In this document: one piece after another, positions 10,330 to 45,600 of the stretch | Layout of the letters: each line of letters starts with the position of its first letter | Position numbering within the stretch: position 1 is the first letter of the stretch | Source: Escherichia phage vB_EcoP_PhAPEC7 | Sequence record: NC_024790.1 | Reading direction: 5' to 3' (one strand) | Length of the DNA stretch: 64,000 nucleotides | Program-made: the position numbers and the translations under genes | The notes under the pieces: model-generated | Seen by the model: only the letters and a program-made list of their open reading frames with translations | What the model was told of the DNA's origin: nothing | Database searches by the model: none

Positions 10330-11505
10330 ATGAACCAGATACCTCAGCACACACTTAGTGATGAACAACTCATGCGTGAGTATGACCGTATTCAGGCGCA
10401 GGCATTCCTTGGACGTAGTGCAGCGTTTTTTGGTTCATTGCTGTGTAGTCTTAAGTTCTCATGGAAACGCGAGGACTGCCCTACTGCATGTACTGACGGG
10501 ATAGAACTCCATTTCAATCCAGACTTCTTTATCTGGATGTGCCCTGATGCGAGAGAAACAGTGCTAATGCACGAACTCTGGCATGTGGCATATCTACATG
10601 GCATCCGCTGTGGAAGCCGTGACCCGGAAATCTGGAACCAGGCATGTGACCACTTCATTAACCTTCAGTTAGAGGAAGATGGATACAAGTTCACTGGTAT
10701 CGACAAAGGCATTTGCAAAGACCCTCAATATAAAGGTTGGGTCGAAGAAGACATCTACGATGACCTGATGAAGAACCCTCAGAAAAGGCAGAAGCCGTCA
10801 GGGGGTGCTGGAGCAGGTCTTGCTGGCGACATGAAAGCTCCCTCTTCGGGGCAGTCCCAGGGTGCTGTTGTCAACAACGTAGTACGTGCAATGCAAAGCC
10901 AGAAGATGGCTGGTGGAATGATGCCCGGTAAAGGTGCTGGTCGTATGGAAGAGGTAATTACCCAATTCCTTAAGCCAGTGGTTCCATGGCAGGAAGTCCT
11001 GCTGAACTTCTTTACCGACATTGATGACTCACACTATACGTGGGCCAGACCTAACCGTCGTTTTACTGACATCTATCTACCATCTCTGGAAGATGATGAA
11101 GGACGCTTACGACACTTAGCTTACTTTGAAGATGTATCTGGTTCCATTAGTAGTGCTGACTCTCTACGTTTTAACTCAGAGGTTGCCTACGTTAAGAGCC
11201 AGTTCAATCCTAAGAAGATGACCCTTATTACCTTCGACGATATTATCCAAGAAGAAATAGACATCACTGAAGAAGATACTTTTGAAGAAATTAAGATTAC
11301 TGGTCGTGGTGGTACAAACCTTGAACCAGTGCGTGAATGGATTATTAAGAATAAGCCAACCGCTGCAATCATATTCTCCGATATGTATGTTCGTCCAATG
11401 GAAGAATTACCATTTGATATCCCTATCATCTGGTGTGTTCTGAATAATCCCAATGCTACCGTACCTTTTGGGGAGGTAGTTCATATCCCTAAAGGAATGA
11501 AATAA
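10330..11505 (+). CDS. vWA-domain protein with N-terminal HExxH metallopeptidase-like domain (DUF2201-like, 391 aa)
   Basis: HELWH zinc-binding motif; MIDAS-like DVSGSIS motif; partner of the AAA+ ATPase. Confidence 0.6.
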   Translation: MNQIPQHTLSDEQLMREYDRIQAQAFLGRSAAFFGSLLCSLKFSWKREDCPTACTDGIELHFNPDFFIWMCPDARETVLMHELWHVAYLHGIRCGSRDPEIWNQACDHFINLQLEEDGYKFTGIDKGICKDPQYKGWVEEDIYDDLMKNPQKRQKPSGGAGAGLAGDMKAPSSGQSQGAVVNNVVRAMQSQKMAGGMMPGKGAGRMEEVITQFLKPVVPWQEVLLNFFTDIDDSHYTWARPNRRFTDIYLPSLEDDEGRLRHLAYFEDVSGSISSADSLRFNSEVAYVKSQFNPKKMTLITFDDIIQEEIDITEEDTFEEIKITGRGGTNLEPVREWIIKNKPTAAIIFSDMYVRPMEELPFDIPIIWCVLNNPNATVPFGEVVHIPKGMK

Positions 11506-12011
11506 TGGTTGTTAATGGTAATTCTCTATACCGTTCATCCCAATTGCTGGATGTTCCGGACCATAAGGTATCGGAACATGGCGTAAGCTACGGACTAGGT
11601 GAAGCTGGTTATGATATTCGTATTAAGCAAGATATCACCTTCTATCGCTTATTTGGGTTGATTCCAATGGTGAAGACTGTCGATGCTGGGGTTGTTAAAC
11701 GCCACTTCGGTAAATTCGCATTGGCTTCGGCAATTGAGAAGTTCAACATGTCTCCGTCCTGTGTAGCTATCGTTCACGATAAGTCTACATGGGCAAGACG
11801 TGCATTATCAGTGTTCAATACCGTAATAGAACCAGGATGGAAAGGGCATCTTACCCTCGAACTGGTCTATCACGGTCGTAAGAAACTGCATATCCCGGCA
11901 GGTGCTGGGATAGCTCAAGTATTATTTCATCTGGTTCAAGAACCTGCTAATTACAATGGCAAGTATCAGAACCAGGAAGACAAACCAGTATCTGCTAGAC
12001 CTTCAAAATAA
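11505..12011 (+). CDS. dcd: dCTP deaminase / dUTPase-fold protein (168 aa)
   Basis: GEAGYDIRI motif typical of the dCTP deaminase/dUTPase fold. Confidence 0.55.
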   Translation: MVVNGNSLYRSSQLLDVPDHKVSEHGVSYGLGEAGYDIRIKQDITFYRLFGLIPMVKTVDAGVVKRHFGKFALASAIEKFNMSPSCVAIVHDKSTWARRALSVFNTVIEPGWKGHLTLELVYHGRKKLHIPAGAGIAQVLFHLVQEPANYNGKYQNQEDKPVSARPSK

Positions 12012-24507: not shown

Positions 24508-25213
24508 AAAATAAATTGGGCTATTTAAACCATGTGAATTCAGGGGAAACCCAGACCGGGCAATCCTGAGCCAAATCAACCATACCTGCCTTAGGAGGCA
24601 CATGATGGATATCAAGAATCTGTACGAGAATACTGACCTATCTCAAGCAGAAATATCAAAGCGTTTGGGTATTAATTACAAAAAAGTCTCTAAATATATT
24701 AGGGAGAACTACAGTAAAGAATACCGCCAAAGCAGAAATGCAAAGTCTTACCGACGCTCCAAGCTGGGGAAAAATAACCCCATGCTCGGTAAATTCGGCA
24801 AAGACCATCACAACTACAAAGGTTTAGTATCCGATAGTAAGGGCTACTTAATGGTACTTAAACCCGATTGGTATACTGCACGCAAAGGTAGCAAACATGT
24901 TTTTGCTCACCATGTAGTGGTATGTGAGGCACTTAATATCAGTGAAATACCTAAGGGCTGGTGTGTGCACCATTGTGATGAAAATCCATACAACAACGAC
25001 TTTGATAATCTTGTATTGCTAAGTGTTCCTGACCACGCTCGGTTACACTCAGCATTGAAAGGTGCAACGACTATCTCGAAAGAGAGTACACTCATGTGGG
25101 TGGAAGCGCATGGCACGCCTTACTATCTGGCGTGATGATATAGTCTGCTCTGCATAGGAATATGCAGCAGTCGAAAGACGGGCATGGATTAACGACCCAT
25201 GCTGAACAACAGG
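24508..25213 (+). mobile_element. Group I self-splicing intron (706 nt) carrying an HNH homing endonuclease gene
   Basis: Splits the conserved PNLQ(N/T)IP codons; 5' exon ends in U pairing with G of guide GGGCT (24518-24522) to give a 5-bp P1; intron ends in G; P/Q-like core 24535-24574; R-like GACTA 25069-25073 and S-like GATATAGTC 25137-25145. Confidence 0.7.
24602..25135 (+). CDS. HNH homing endonuclease (intron-encoded, 177 aa)
   Basis: HNH motif HHCDENPYNNDFDNLVLLSVPDHARLH; strong AGGAGG RBS; sits inside the intron. Confidence 0.8.
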   Translation: MMDIKNLYENTDLSQAEISKRLGINYKKVSKYIRENYSKEYRQSRNAKSYRRSKLGKNNPMLGKFGKDHHNYKGLVSDSKGYLMVLKPDWYTARKGSKHVFAHHVVVCEALNISEIPKGWCVHHCDENPYNNDFDNLVLLSVPDHARLHSALKGATTISKESTLMWVEAHGTPYYLA

Positions 25214-30077: not shown

Positions 30078-30410
30078 ATGTCCGAAGAAATCTCCAACGA
30101 TATGAACACTCAGCTAATCCTGATTGCAGGATTCTCAGCTAGTGGTAAATCAGCATCACTGCGTAATATCCGGAACCAGGAACGCTGGCTGTATCTGAAT
30201 ACAGAAGCGGGTAAACGTCTACCTTTCCGTAATAAGTTCAACACCTACAATATCGAAGACCCATACCAGATTTGGGAAGCATTCGATGTTGCATCTCCTG
30301 GTGGTGAAATGGCAGACGATGTTGATGGCATCATTATCGACTCTGCTACCTTCATGATGGACATGCTGGAATCCCAGTATGTATTACCATCTGCTAATAC
30401 CCAAAAGGCT
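30078..30410 (+). CDS. RecA-like/Sak4-like ATPase, exon 1
   Basis: Walker A IAGFSASGKSA, Walker B GIIIDSATF; the TAA at 30411 is read as the first intron codon. Confidence 0.5.
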
Positions 30411-31182
30411 TAACTACTAAGGCCCGTTAGTCAGTAATGATTAATGATAACTGATTGAATTCAGGGAAACCCCTAACGTAAAGACGAGGGCAATCCTGAG
30501 CCAAGACTTAATCTTTCTCCGGTTTTTATTAACGGAGTTACAAACATGAGTAAGAAAAGATTCGGTAATGAATTACATCCTCTGTATTACACATGGTTAA
30601 CCATTAAACAGAGATGTGACAACCCTAAGCACGCTAGTTATAAAAACTATGGGGCTAGGGGGATAACTAGAGCAGAAGAGTTCTCTGACTTCAAAGTGTT
30701 TGCTGCCTATCTAGAATCATTAGATGGTTACGCAGACAGGGAGAGACTGGGTCTTACTTTAGATAGAATAGGTGGTTCACTTGGCTATGTGCCAGGAAAT
30801 CTGAGATAGGCAACTAGAACAACTCAGACCATTAATTCCAGAAAAAGAAGAACCAGTAAAGCTACCTACTTAGGGATAGGTTTAAACACCACTAAGAAAA
30901 AATGGTCAGCAAGAATCTGCAACGGTAATGAAAGAATCTTTGTAGGTAATTTTGATTCCGAGATTGAAGCTCTGAAAGCTAGAAATGCCTACATTATTGA
31001 GCATGGTTTACCTCATGCCATTCAAAAGATTAAGTAAGGTGCAACGACTATCCAGTAATGGAGTAGGGCAGAAGCTAATGCTGCTCGAAGCGGTCAGCAT
31101 CCTATCGTAATTAACGAGGATGAAGATATAGTCTGGACTGCATGGAAACATGCAGATGCAGGTAATGCTGCTGGGAGTGTAG
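30411..31182 (+). mobile_element. Group I intron (about 772 nt) carrying a disrupted HNH-AP2-type homing endonuclease ORF; 3' boundary approximate
   Basis: P/Q core 30453-30504 near-identical to intron 1; 4-bp P1 between exon GGCU (30407-30410) and guide GGCC (30421-30424) at the same 10-nt spacing; R-like 31038-31052, S-like 31126-31134; 3' splice site placed after G 31182 by frame and a 3-bp P10 (alternative about 31209). Confidence 0.6.
30546..31037 (+). pseudogene. HNH-AP2 family homing endonuclease-like ORF with in-frame TAG at 30807-30809
   Basis: N-terminal YYTWLTIKQRCDNPKHASYKNYGARGI..., then DRIGG...GNLR-stop-ATRT where the family has NxRWAT; the same frame continues into an AP2-like domain (KKWSARICNGNERIFVGNFDSEIEALKARNAY) to TAA 31035-31037. 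Confidence 0.55.
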
Positions 31183-31626
31183 TTGCGTACACTCTTGAAC
31201 GTATCGTGGGGAGACTTTGCACAGTTCTTTAAAGTACTGCTGCAACAGAAAGTCGTTAAGTTTGGTAAGCCGGTAATCATTACTGCCCATGCCAAAGATG
31301 AACTCGACGAAGCTGCTGGTGTAATGAAAACATTCATCCCGGTCAAGGGTTCACTGAAGAACAATGGCCTTGAGGCTTACTTTTCTACAGTGGTTTACGC
31401 AGAACGTGTAGACATTAAAGAACTGGAGAAGTACGGCAACAAGATGCTTGATATTACGGAAGAAGAACGTGACTTAGGCTATAAGCACGTATTCCAGACA
31501 CGTCCAACCAAGAAGTCTGTTGGTAAACGTCTTCGCTCACCAATGGGTATGTTCGATAAGTCTCAGACTTACATTGATAATGATGCCCAAAAACTCTTAG
31601 ACCATCTGGCTGAATACTACGCTTAA
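31183..31626 (+). CDS. RecA-like/Sak4-like ATPase, exon 2 (start approximate)
   Basis: In-frame continuation after intron removal; the track start at 31183 is a TTG. Confidence 0.45.
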   Translation: MRTLLNVSWGDFAQFFKVLLQQKVVKFGKPVIITAHAKDELDEAAGVMKTFIPVKGSLKNNGLEAYFSTVVYAERVDIKELEKYGNKMLDITEEERDLGYKHVFQTRPTKKSVGKRLRSPMGMFDKSQTYIDNDAQKLLDHLAEYYA

Positions 31627-33879: not shown

Positions 33880-35410
33880 TCGTGAAGGGTTCTGTCAGAA
33901 TCCTTTGAGATAGGAACTCCTATCATAACCTTTCTTAACTTAATCTTTGCCGTATGGCACTGACGCTAGGGGTGGCCCCCCATCCGTCAGACAGACTATT
34001 TTAAGAATGGGTTATCTCAGAAAATGTAAAGCAACATTCGGGTTAATCAATGGCCTCTCCCTATAGGGGCCATTTCTGAATCTTAGGCTATATCCCAAAG
34101 GTTAGTATCTTTGGGATAAGGCTTCAGATCCCTTATCAAACTAACTGCTCAATGTTGAGTATATTAATTAACCCAGCCCACTAAGGGGGCGGGAGTTTAA
34201 TGCCGGTAAGCATAAGCCCATCCGACTACAACATCGAAGTGTTAGGTCTTACATGCAATATAGGGTATAAAGGGAGGATTCGTCCCCTCCCTCCTATTAT
34301 GAACTATCGGAGAGTGCATTAGTTGATTAGCTGTGGAAGGTAGGCCGATGTCCACAAGTGTGGCCCAGAGCTAGTGTACTCCCCGATAGTTTTCGTAGCG
34401 ATTATGCGGTTTTTTAGAAACGAACCAATAACATAAATGCAAACGAAGAAGCGTATCTGATGGTCGCCTAACAGCGTAACCTCAGTCAGGAGTGAGTCGT
34501 CCTGATTATCAAACGACCGTGGAGTTCTCCCGTCCATGTATTAGAAACGGGGGACCAACTACCAGTTGCACGAGATGGCTTGATATGTTCAAGTTTGGAC
34601 TAAGTGTGACACCGCTAGATTGGAGGGCTGCTGCGGTAAGCTATAGACTCCAACCGGAGGTTCGAATCCTTCACTGGTAACCAATTCAAAGTAGCACTGG
34701 CTCATATTAGTGGAACTCGAACCCATTGAGCAGACGAGATTAGCTAACTCTCAGTGCTACCCCTAATTGGAAGAATTAAGACGGGTCTGGTGAAGTAGAT
34801 GGGGTTCAATTCCCCCCGGTGGAGTAATCCACTAGCGTGCTTGGTGCACGTATAAGACTTAGTACTGGTGGTTCGATTCCATCCCCCGTTACCTGAAGTC
34901 GCCAGGTACTTATGGCAAACGGGTAGTAACGAACTAGTCATTCGTCAAACGCCCACCCAATTATGAGTCAGCAAGAACGCCTTCACTTAAACTTAAACAA
35001 AAAAGCTTAACGCAATGATTATGTAGGGGTATGTAAGGATTGCGAAGAAGGAGCCAGTTAGAGCCTGGCATGACTCACCTATTATGTCCGCTTAGCTTAG
35101 ACTGGGAAAGCAACCGACTAATAATCGGAAGGTCACTGGTTCAAATCCAGTAGTGGACACCCATTCAGCAGTAACATAGTCCTGATTGCATAGCACTCTA
35201 AAGACAACACTGGTAAGACAGTCCAGTGGCTGCTAATGTATTGTTATTCCCCTCGACGGGAATTTCGCTGGAGAATAGGAACTACTTAAATCCTAGCCTG
35301 AGTATTGCAATATGTGACTATCAATCACGAGAGACGGGACGACCAGACCCCTGAAGCTGGCAATATTGCATATTCATACAAGCCTCCCAGCTATGGGTAA
35401 ATAGTACTAA
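33880..35410 (+). other. Non-coding structured island with tRNA-like elements
   Basis: No RBS-supported ORF; perfect hairpins (for example a 10-bp stem at 34091-34118) and T-arm-like motifs at 34659-34669, 34801-34815, 34870-34880 and 35138-35148. Confidence 0.45.
35086..35159 (+). tRNA. Candidate tRNA (74 nt; anticodon loop CTAATAA, anticodon AAT as parsed)
   Basis: Acceptor GTCCGCT/AGTGGAC (one G-U), D-stem GCTT/AAGC, anticodon stem CCGA/TCGG, T-arm ACTGG-TTCAAAT-CCAGT; CCA not encoded; A34 is unusual. Confidence 0.5.
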
Positions 35411-42600: not shown

Positions 42601-45600
42601 ATATCAACAGCAGGTTTCAGATTACCTTCCAGAGCCTTGGTCAACTTTTCAGACATAGCTTCACGGGACATGTTATGTACCTTGATGCCTAATGCCTGAG
42701 CCAGTCCTAACTGGAAGTCAGAGACTGCTTGGCTGTTTTCATTACTCAAGTCAATAGTAGAGAAGGTTGGCAGAATTGCTTCACGAACCAGCTTACTGGA
42801 TTGTGGGTTATTCTTACCTAGCATCTGCATACGACCTACACGGGTCATGTTGTAACCATAGTGAATAGGAGTATCCAGACCATTCTCTTGTTCCCGTATC
42901 TGGCTGATTACACCAAACAAGGAATCATATGCCATAGACACGGACAGGTTTTTACCCTCCAGTGACTTAGCAGTGTTCATATTCAACAGTTCTGGATTAA
43001 GAGAACCAGCACCCATCAGTTCCAGAATGTTGTCACGACCTAAAGCTTCATAGAAGTTAACCATCGGCATGTGTACACGGAACTCAGTAGCTTGTTCAGC
43101 TTTCAGTGCAGCTTTCTGTTCCGGGGTATTTTTAACAGCAGGGTTACGTAACTGAGTTTGAGCCACGGAAGGAATGTCGTCACCGAAGTACATTTTCTCT
43201 TCTGGTTCTAAGAGGACAGCTTCCTCAATAGCAGTAGGGAATTTGTTAATGGCATCATTGTCATCCAGCTTCTCAATGGTATACAGACCAACAGTCTTAT
43301 TAGAGTCTGGGTCAATCTCAGACACATCCAGCATAGACTCTTTAACTTCACCCATTTCAATGAGGGAAGACAGAATCTCTGTAGCCATTGCCATTGGGAT
43401 ACCTTTTGTGTAACCCAGTGGTGCATTAGGATTACGATTCAAACCCCAATAAGATTCAATCTTCTGAGCCAGTGAGTTAGTAGCTTCGACCAGAGTCTGG
43501 GCATTCTCAAACTCAGCCAGAATACCTTCTGGTAACAGAGATGCTTCCACACCAGTAATAGCAGCTACGTCTTTCATGTCTTTAATGGCAGCATTCTGTG
43601 TAGCAGTCAGTCGCCATTGCAGTCCGGCAAGTACAGCAGTCTCTAACAACTGATCATTGAACTTAAAGGTGTCACCATCTCGTTCAACGATATTCAGCAA
43701 TTTGCCACCTACCCAACGGTTAGCTTCAGTACCTTCTGCAAAACGTTTACCAACGTTCTTATTAGCAAGGAACTTAACCAGACGTTCAGACAAAGTAGTC
43801 TTCAGAGTTTCCCCAAAGTCCATCAAGTCCTGATAACGTTTCATCACATCACTAGTGAGAGCGTTATTTTCTTTTTGAGTGAATGCCTCAAAGCGAGCAG
43901 CAGAAGACAGTGCTTGCTTAATATCAGCCAAAGGAGATTCAGAACCAATGGTACGGGACTTAGGTTCTTCCGGTAGGGTAAATGCTTTCAGGAACTGGTT
44001 CGGTGTCTTTTCATTGTTATAGACAGGGAACACTGTTTCCATTTCTGTTTTAGTTTCAGCTACTTCCTGGATGGTATCCTCATTAGTGAGGGTAGCTTCT
44101 ACTGTTTCGGGCTTAGTAGTAGAGACTTCTTCTGCTTTTGGACTAGTCTCCTTAGTAGGAGCAGTCTTATTTTCTACCACTGGTTTAGCTTTAGGCTGTA
44201 CAGTAGTAGTGTCCTCTTGCACTGGTGCAGGAGTTTCATCAACCTGATTCACTGGTTCATTAGTCTGTTGAGACTGAGTGGCATCAAGACCACCTTGACG
44301 GAACTCTTTAACTACCTGGGCAACTGGCTTGTTCAGACGTGAATCCAACGAGGTAACTTTCACATGAGAAACATTAAGCTCCGGGTAAGCCGTAGCAAGT
44401 GCGTTAGCAATATCAGCTACGGTTTTGGCCTCCAGTCCTACTTGCTGGGCAAACTTAACAGACTTGGTATCGTAAGGATTGACACCGAGGCCAGTACGAC
44501 TACGTACCCATTCACGGGAAGGCGAGAGAGCCTGATAATGGACAGACTTATTCTTATCCGCATTCCCCGAAATCAGATGCTCATTCAACGCTCCGACCTT
44601 ATTCTGCATGTGCTGGGCGAACTTCATAAAGTCGCTCAGATAAGCGGAGGCCAAATCGAAGTTACCAGAGTTATACGCAGAACGAATGCGTTTCGCATGT
44701 TGCAACGCAGAGTACTGTCCTTCATTAGAACGAGACTCATCGGTTTTAATCTGTTTACTAACAATGTCCTGAGGACGTAAGCCCAGTTCTTCTGCTTTAG
44801 CGTCGAACTCACGTGCACCCTGTAACAAGGCAGCAGCAGATTGCAGGGCAGCACGTTGACGATTCCCTAATGTAATCTTACCTTCACTTGCATGTTTAAG
44901 AACCATGTTCACTGAATCTGCATCCAGTACTTCTGGAGACACATCAGCAGCCATAGCAATGTTGTTTGCTTGGGCTTGGTTAGCTTCTTCAGTAGCTTTC
45001 AGTTTACCTGCCTCAGCCTGTTCCTGAATCATGGAATGGATAGCACGGAATGCACGAAGTACTTTAGGGGTATTCTGTACGTTAGCCATCAGGCCGGAGA
45101 ACTGGTCTACGATTGCAGCAGCAGGGGAACCTTGTTCCAGATTAGCCAGAGCACCTGGGTCACGGTTAATGAAGTTATCCATAGACATGATGTTGTCATA
45201 CATCTGAATTGCAGCTTCCATTTGAACGTTAGGGTCTTCGGCAGTATTAACCAAGTCAGCCATCTTCTGAATAGCTTCTACACGGTTAGTGGAACCAGAA
45301 ACAGCTTCACGGATTACTGGGTTAACTTGTTCCAATTCTACTGGGTCAAACTTCATTGCCTGAGTTAAATCAGCAGCATACTGGGTAGCAGCAGCTTTCT
45401 CTTCTGGAGTGATATCCATTGCATCTACTGCTTCTTGTACAGTTGCTTGTGCTTGCTCTGCTTGAGCAGCAGCTTCCTGTGCAGCAGCATTAACCGTAGC
45501 ATCAGCTACAGGGGATGCTTGTTCATTACGCTTAGCAACTTCTTCACCACGTTGAACCAGGATGTTAGTAAGGGGAGATGTAGCTTTTGCTAATGTTTTA

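Follow-up and report, generated by a model that had tools for sequence, protein, structure and literature searches.

Homing-endonuclease genes are well known to pass through a cycle of gain, decay and loss, and the T4 nrdB intron reportedly carries a defective gene of this kind, that of I-TevIII. The locus described here resembles the T4 case in that an apparently splicing-competent intron holds an endonuclease gene disabled in one isolate and intact in relatives; it differs in the lesion, which is a deletion in T4 and a single nonsense substitution, with all the other codons present, in our phage.

Among described nucleases, the closest class is IPA-HNH, the ICP1-like phage AP2-associated HNH-domain genes named by Barth et al, 2023 (PMC10448857), in which HNH-like domains too divergent for Pfam are joined to AP2. 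The protein studied here shares with this class an N-terminal HNH-like module too divergent for Pfam HNH_3 and a C-terminal AP2 domain, a gene position in or beside essential replication genes, and the existence of an inactivated member, the frameshifted ICP1 gp115-116 (PMC10448857), which offers a precedent within the same class. It differs in being intron-encoded, in an N4-like coliphage, and in its length of 163 aa as compared with 272 aa for ICP1 gp59; moreover, gp59 has a Lys at the position of the canonical His, where the family of our protein has an Arg. A second relative is I-HmuI, from the DNA-polymerase intron of Bacillus phage SPO1 (PDB 1u3e), which is likewise encoded by a phage group I intron. 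The family shares with I-HmuI and HNH_3 the block 'D-x-x-D...N-L-R-W-x-T', in a weak match (E = 0.096) that aligns I-HmuI D74/H75, N87, W90 and N96 with family D73/R74, N85, W88 and Q94. Unlike them, it has Arg for the general-base His, Tyr81 for the structural Asn and Gln94 for the metal-ligand Asn, and its DNA-binding part is AP2, not NUMOD/HTH.

We analysed a stretch of 64,000 nucleotides (the window) of Escherichia phage vB_EcoP_PhAPEC7 (NC_024790.1), a Gamaleyavirus (G7C/N4-like) whose nearest record in the collection is PhAPEC5 (95.6% identity). An earlier note on this DNA had singled out an ORF at 30546-31037 (+) as an intron-encoded HNH-AP2 homing-endonuclease gene broken by an in-frame TAG, and had proposed decay, a sequencing error or suppression as possible readings. 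We consider that the TAG is probably real, a nonsense mutation of very recent date with which the decay of the homing-endonuclease gene would have begun.

The gp44 intron and its interrupted reading frame

The ORF sits within a 796-nt insertion in gp44, a Sak4-like AAA ATPase replication gene adjoining the primase and SSB genes. In alignment with the intronless G7C gp44, the gap is exactly 796 nt, which fixes the exon ends at T30410 and T31207, and removal of the insertion restores the gp44 frame, with ligated exons 99-100% identical in protein sequence to PhAPEC5 gp51. The features of the locus are listed below, the P7, P3 and P9 helices being predictions read from the sequence.

30078..30410, + strand: gp44 exon 1, ending in U30410 (G7C gp44 alignment; 99% aa identity to PhAPEC5 gp51 residues 1-111)
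30407..30424, + strand: predicted P1, exon GGCU (30407-30410) with internal guide GGCC (30421-30424), from sequence and Rfam alignment
30411..31206, + strand: group I intron, 796 nt, starting with an in-frame TAA and ending in G31206 (omega-G)
30411..30545, + strand: 5' ribozyme segment, 5' strands of P1-P6 (Rfam alignment)
30546..30809, + strand: stump of the homing-endonuclease gene that is still translated, 87 codons and the TAG
30807-30809, + strand: premature amber codon W88*, TGG to TAG by G-to-A at 30808 (comparison with relatives)
30810..31037, + strand: untranslated rest of the gene, with the rest of beta-2, the helix carrying Q94 and N97, and the AP2 DNA-binding domain
31038..31206, + strand: 3' ribozyme segment, with P7, the P3 3' strand, P8 and P9 (Rfam alignment)
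31046-31051 with 31128-31133, + strand: P7, predicted
31091-31097, + strand: P3 3' strand, predicted to pair with 30451-30457
31138-31155, + strand: P9 with a GAAA loop, predicted
31207..31626, + strand: gp44 exon 2, starting at T31207 (100% aa identity to PhAPEC5 gp51 residues 111-250)

Both halves of the insertion match RF00028 (30401-30670, 30.9 bits, E = 1.4e-5; 30928-31155, 49.5 bits, E = 3.9e-11), each singly below the gathering score of 50 bits because the ORF splits the core. These matches, together with the predicted U-G pair in P1, the terminal G and the frame restored on removal, identify the element as a group I intron; U30410-G30421 would be the wobble pair expected at a group I 5' splice site. 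The insertion is missing from most Gamaleyaviruses and present in SP5M, Bas96 and PW8, and in the Bas96 record a joined CDS spans this element. Its ribozyme-only parts (304 nt) show 0-2 differences from each relative, and the 5' ribozyme segment (30411..30545) has one variable column only in four phages. The gp44 intron presumably splices. Both things that the earlier note had said of the element, that it encodes the endonuclease ORF and that it still looks splicing-competent, are upheld by the bounds set on the intronless G7C gp44 (30411-31206), by the RF00028 matches and by the conservation of the ribozyme parts.

Directly before the intron, CAAAAGGCT (30399-30410) is found in 4/4 of the intron-bearing phage alleles compared. 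At the same site the intronless alleles (L004, L005) read CAGAAAGCC in G7C and CAAAAAAGT in PhAPEC5, the latter with an Ala-to-Ser change, and the intronless gp44 target runs CAGAAAGCC and, from the insertion point on, TGGGGAGAC. This difference appears to fit the P1-pairing requirement, and the intronless variants are possibly cleavage-resistant targets. Our literature search found no paper describing the gp44 intron of Gamaleyaviruses; for G7C-like phages, a preprint describes an intron in g16 that is spliced and an insertion in g39 that is not (10.1101/542787), the g39 insertion of the related phage 10Gb reportedly leaving a split polymerase (10.1101/542787). The window also has a second insertion, at 24526-25198, by which the DNA polymerase gene (gp39) is split, as it is in PhAPEC5. 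It scores 38 and 17.7 bits against the Rfam group I model, which is below threshold, and its ORF (24605-25132) encodes an unbroken 176-aa HNH protein that is 99.4% identical to the PhAPEC5 copy and has zero sequence similarity to the gp44 endonuclease.

Translated, the ORF at 30546-31037 gives 87 codons, the TAG at 30807-30809 and then 75 codons to a TAA at 31035-31037. This reading, and an alignment of 66 family sequences, bear out the description of an in-frame stop followed by 75 more codons through an AP2-type domain; the alignment is colinear through the stop position, which disposes of the objection that the family might end here and the AP2-like part be non-homologous. Restoring the Trp gives a protein that matches PHROG 374 ('HNH endonuclease') across residues 11-150 (E = 2.4e-38), and since this match crosses the stop, the frame beyond the TAG is no chance opening. 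The 87-aa product is identical to YP_009056178.1/AHV82673.1 (vB_EcoP_PhAPEC7), labelled 'restriction endonuclease', and the TAG is therefore already in the public record. A separate AP2 product made by re-initiation was considered and ruled out, as the frame beyond the TAG contains no ATG, GTG or TTG. For a hairpin that would hide the Shine-Dalgarno of the endonuclease gene (30517-30537), the predicted folding is not more stable than that of shuffled sequence (z = -0.59).

An open and conserved frame of 75 codons after the TAG is also what one would see if the amber codon were read through, whether with the help of a suppressor tRNA of host or phage or owing to its context, to give full-length endonuclease, perhaps at a deliberately low level, although a very recent mutation would leave the same frame. 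No tRNA with a CUA anticodon is encoded within the 64-kb window, where the only tRNA has an AAT anticodon, and there is no tRNA in the part of PhAPEC5 equivalent to the ~8 kb of genome beyond the window. In-frame stops are found in 0/58 of the conserved CDS mapped from PhAPEC5 in the window, and TAG is the ordinary terminator of 5/52 conserved CDS. All other copies readable at this position have TGG, so that the TAG is not a conserved feature. The suppression option thus finds no support, the AAT-only tRNA complement, the absence of in-frame stops and the ordinary use of TAG speaking against a suppressor tRNA or recoding, and readthrough in general appears very improbable.

Protein family and active-site residues

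A database search returned 353 homologues, mostly ~160 aa and colinear with both halves of the ORF. W88, conserved in at least 90% of the family, lies in an 'NLRW(A/V)T' motif and aligns with W90 in the corresponding block of I-HmuI, so that the residue lost to the stop is, as had been proposed, the Trp of a conserved NxRWAT block. In an AlphaFold model built from 66 family members (pLDDT 94), residues 1-100 are predicted to begin as a helical region and to go on into a beta-beta-alpha unit (beta 71-74, beta 86-89, helix 91-96); on this model the stump comprises the helical N-terminal part, beta-1, in which D73 and R74 lie, and the Y81 loop. The AP2/ERF assignment of the other domain rests on a three-stranded sheet packed on a helix and on sequence-profile similarity.

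The N-terminal module lacks two features of a canonical HNH or HNH_3 domain, a catalytic His at the end of beta-1 and a Pfam HNH or HNH_3 match: no Pfam HNH family scores at E ≤ 1, and no NCBIfam model matches the module. In place of the His, Arg74 is invariant, in 66/66 aligned sequences and in 351/351 recognisable modules, with His in none; Tyr81, Gln94 and N97 are invariant in the family too. By contrast, the features of IPA-HNH are found, a divergent N-terminal HNH-like domain with a C-terminal AP2 and homology to the founder, ICP1 gp59 (hhalign of the family profile: probability 96.3%, E = 1.9e-9, 120 columns). Judged by these profile and fold similarities, the endonuclease is a member of the divergent HNH-like/AP2 class IPA-HNH, not a canonical HNH-AP2 enzyme. 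The earlier assignment to HNH-AP2 is accordingly retained for the AP2 domain and for an HNH-like module, and given up for a canonical HNH-AP2 architecture, in view of the lack of a Pfam HNH/HNH_3 match. The earlier note had further read DRIGG, in place of DHIDG, as loss of the first catalytic His and a second sign of decay. The Arg is no lesion, as it is the family's invariant residue; the Gly (D76G) is indeed unusual, yet it also occurs in the unbroken ORF of a metagenomic copy of the intron, L008.

The ~100-aa N-terminal HNH-like module is widespread: a threshold of E ≤ 1e-10 yields 118,440 cluster representatives, although neither Pfam nor NCBIfam has a model for it. Two to four tandem copies, mostly without AP2, are present in 132/267 proteins examined; these 267 are top-scoring hits and are biased toward multi-copy proteins. 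A homologue from phage Twort is not the characterised I-TwoI but a free-standing ORF.

That the N-terminal module exists without AP2 in many proteins, often in tandem, would favour a functional truncation, in which the 87-aa fragment would act as a DNA-binding or regulatory protein or as a dominant inhibitor of incoming endonucleases. However, the stump stops within the module and reaches neither beta-2 nor the invariant Q94 and N97, whereas the stand-alone modules in the database reach about residue 98-100, and the 87-aa allele is a singleton. We regard a function for the fragment as scarcely credible.

We found no characterised member of this HNH-like/AP2 family. Since the family lacks the canonical catalytic His, the intact 163-aa protein is presumed to be an active endonuclease solely on the strength of purifying selection on the ORF and of the intron's mobility. 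A precedent for an enzyme without this His is PacI, which uses an omega-loop Tyr (PMC5714182). Given the invariant Arg in place of the His, the invariant Tyr81 in the omega-loop and the recent spread of the intron, it is conceivable, though we hold the idea tentatively, that the family cuts DNA in a His-independent, PacI-like, tyrosine-initiated manner as an active homing endonuclease. Similarity of the family to PacI (PDB 3m7k/3ldy) is weak, and PacI differs in being a dimeric restriction enzyme with two zinc sites; the mechanistic analogy serves only as a lead.

Relatives, age of the stop and spread of the intron

At the position of the stop, SP5M, Bas96 and PW8 have TGG and unbroken ORFs of 163 codons, and so do two metagenomic copies, L007 and L008, recovered in an exact scan of viral and metagenome contigs with an invariant intron-core 35-mer. 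The same-intron comparison that the earlier note had proposed therefore gives TGG and an intact 163-codon ORF in 5/5 readable copies, and a single TGG-to-TAG transition, as had been supposed, accounts for the stop. The TAG allele was sought elsewhere: the exact intron-core scans returned only these two further copies, both TGG, and a search of the contigs for the exact 87-aa protein gave zero matches. In the 90%-identity protein cluster (44 members), the 87-aa form occurs in the PhAPEC7 record only; the other members listed are of 163 aa with the Trp, bar one 113-aa call, and all those listed that span the stop position have Trp. The 113-aa member (P0123; 5 contigs, up to 70 kb) starts at the V51 codon and keeps the Trp, which hints at other phages in which this endonuclease gene has been disrupted in another way, at its N-terminal end.

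The nearest allele is L008, which differs from the window at 4/881 aligned bases, 2 of them within the 796-nt intron. It has G76, T95 and K144 as the window does and yet has TGG; therefore the stop is the newest change on that allele, and would either be peculiar to this phage and very young or reflect an error in base calling. The latter possibility, that the TAG in the PhAPEC7 record is an artefact, due either to a miscalled consensus base or to a minority variant that became fixed in the sequenced lysate while the population has TGG, accords with a single-base change seen in one record only among the 44-member cluster and the six intron copies, and with a nearest allele that is almost identical otherwise. 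Several points weigh against it. No other conserved gene in 49 kb has a stop or a broken frame, which argues that the assembly is not error-prone, and the second intron difference from L008, at position 30943, indicates that real substitutions separate the two alleles. Substitution errors in a high-coverage consensus are, as a rule, much rarer than real differences between isolates. Plaque purification, moreover, could plausibly lose a dispensable and potentially toxic endonuclease, and endonuclease-inactivating mutations did arise in a cloned G7C-like g39 insertion (10.1101/542787). Taken together, a real mutation is more likely than a sequencing error, the TAG presumably being a true mutation in the phage stock, and we hold an artefact of the record to be unlikely. 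Of the three options originally considered for the TAG, decay is thus the most likely one, sequencing error being less likely and suppression without support.

The intron is much less diverged than its surroundings. Between L008 and the window, 2/796 intron positions differ as compared with 56/1905 in the flanks (p = 6e-7), and between PW8 and the window the counts are 12/796 and 167/1905 (p = 1e-14). The history of the intron is therefore uncoupled from that of the surrounding genome, as homing predicts: it has spread horizontally, and these divergences indicate a mobile element that did so recently and between diverged phages. Lineage-specific changes in the ORFs of SP5M, Bas96 and PW8 comprise 2 non-synonymous and 19 synonymous ones, indicating that the endonuclease ORF is under purifying selection in these relatives. 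For the window, the specific changes are 4 non-synonymous and 3 synonymous (versus 2:19 in the three relatives, Fisher p = 0.02). Relaxed selection was nevertheless dropped as evidence of decay: D76G, A95T and E144K occur in the unbroken ORF of L008, thus predate the stop in an intact and recently spread allele, and give no support for long-relaxed constraint.

Predicted consequences of the stop and other features of the window

In the explanation that we propose, a mobile group I intron in gp44 would hold, in its P6 region, a 163-codon homing-endonuclease gene coding for an IPA-HNH nuclease module joined to a C-terminal AP2 DNA-binding domain. A single G-to-A change at 30808 would have turned Trp88 (TGG) into an amber codon in PhAPEC7, ending translation after 87 residues. 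The product would be without beta-2, without the helix of the putative beta-beta-alpha-metal finger with its invariant Q94 and N97, and without the whole AP2 domain, and would be unable to bind or cut the intronless gp44 target; on the sequence and the family model, it should be inactive. The ribozyme being untouched, gp44 would still be made by splicing at no cost to the phage, which should be unaffected because gp44 depends on the ribozyme only. Such a change would be the first step of homing-endonuclease decay once nothing remains to invade, although one nonsense event cannot show a trend.

In itself, the stop matters little: it would be ordinary early homing-endonuclease decay, or a one-base error in the record, and not recoding. 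It would add one more homing-endonuclease gene at the first step of decay, in an intron whose splicing has to persist for the sake of a needed host gene. In the PhAPEC7 record, gp44 should be shown as spliced, and the 87-aa 'restriction endonuclease' should be labelled a pseudogene fragment. The interest may lie in the family rather than in the stop. PhAPEC7 would be a natural knockout for a putative endonuclease family lacking the His, and PhAPEC7 together with the intact-ORF phages SP5M, Bas96 and PW8 would form a natural near-isogenic pair for the study of homing by a His-less HNH-like/AP2 protein. The family-wide Arg/Tyr/Gln active-site pattern poses a testable biochemical question.

Elsewhere in the window, the sole tRNA gene (35085-35163) is called as tRNA-Ile with anticodon AAT and is conserved in PhAPEC5; this anticodon is unusual for bacteria and phages, as A34 would need deamination to read Ile codons. 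In the virion RNA polymerase gene, ~127 PhAPEC5 residues (aa 977-1103) are without a counterpart in the window at 44049-44063 (- strand), where the alignment blocks abut in frame, 15 nt apart; judged from this alignment, one of the two phages has an indel or a module inserted here. The free-standing HNH gene gp49 of PhAPEC5, at the exonuclease/primase junction, is missing from the window at ~27868. Finally, the dCTP-deaminase gene (11505-12008) is 45% identical to that of PhAPEC5, its neighbours being >95% identical, a divergence that suggests replacement of a module.
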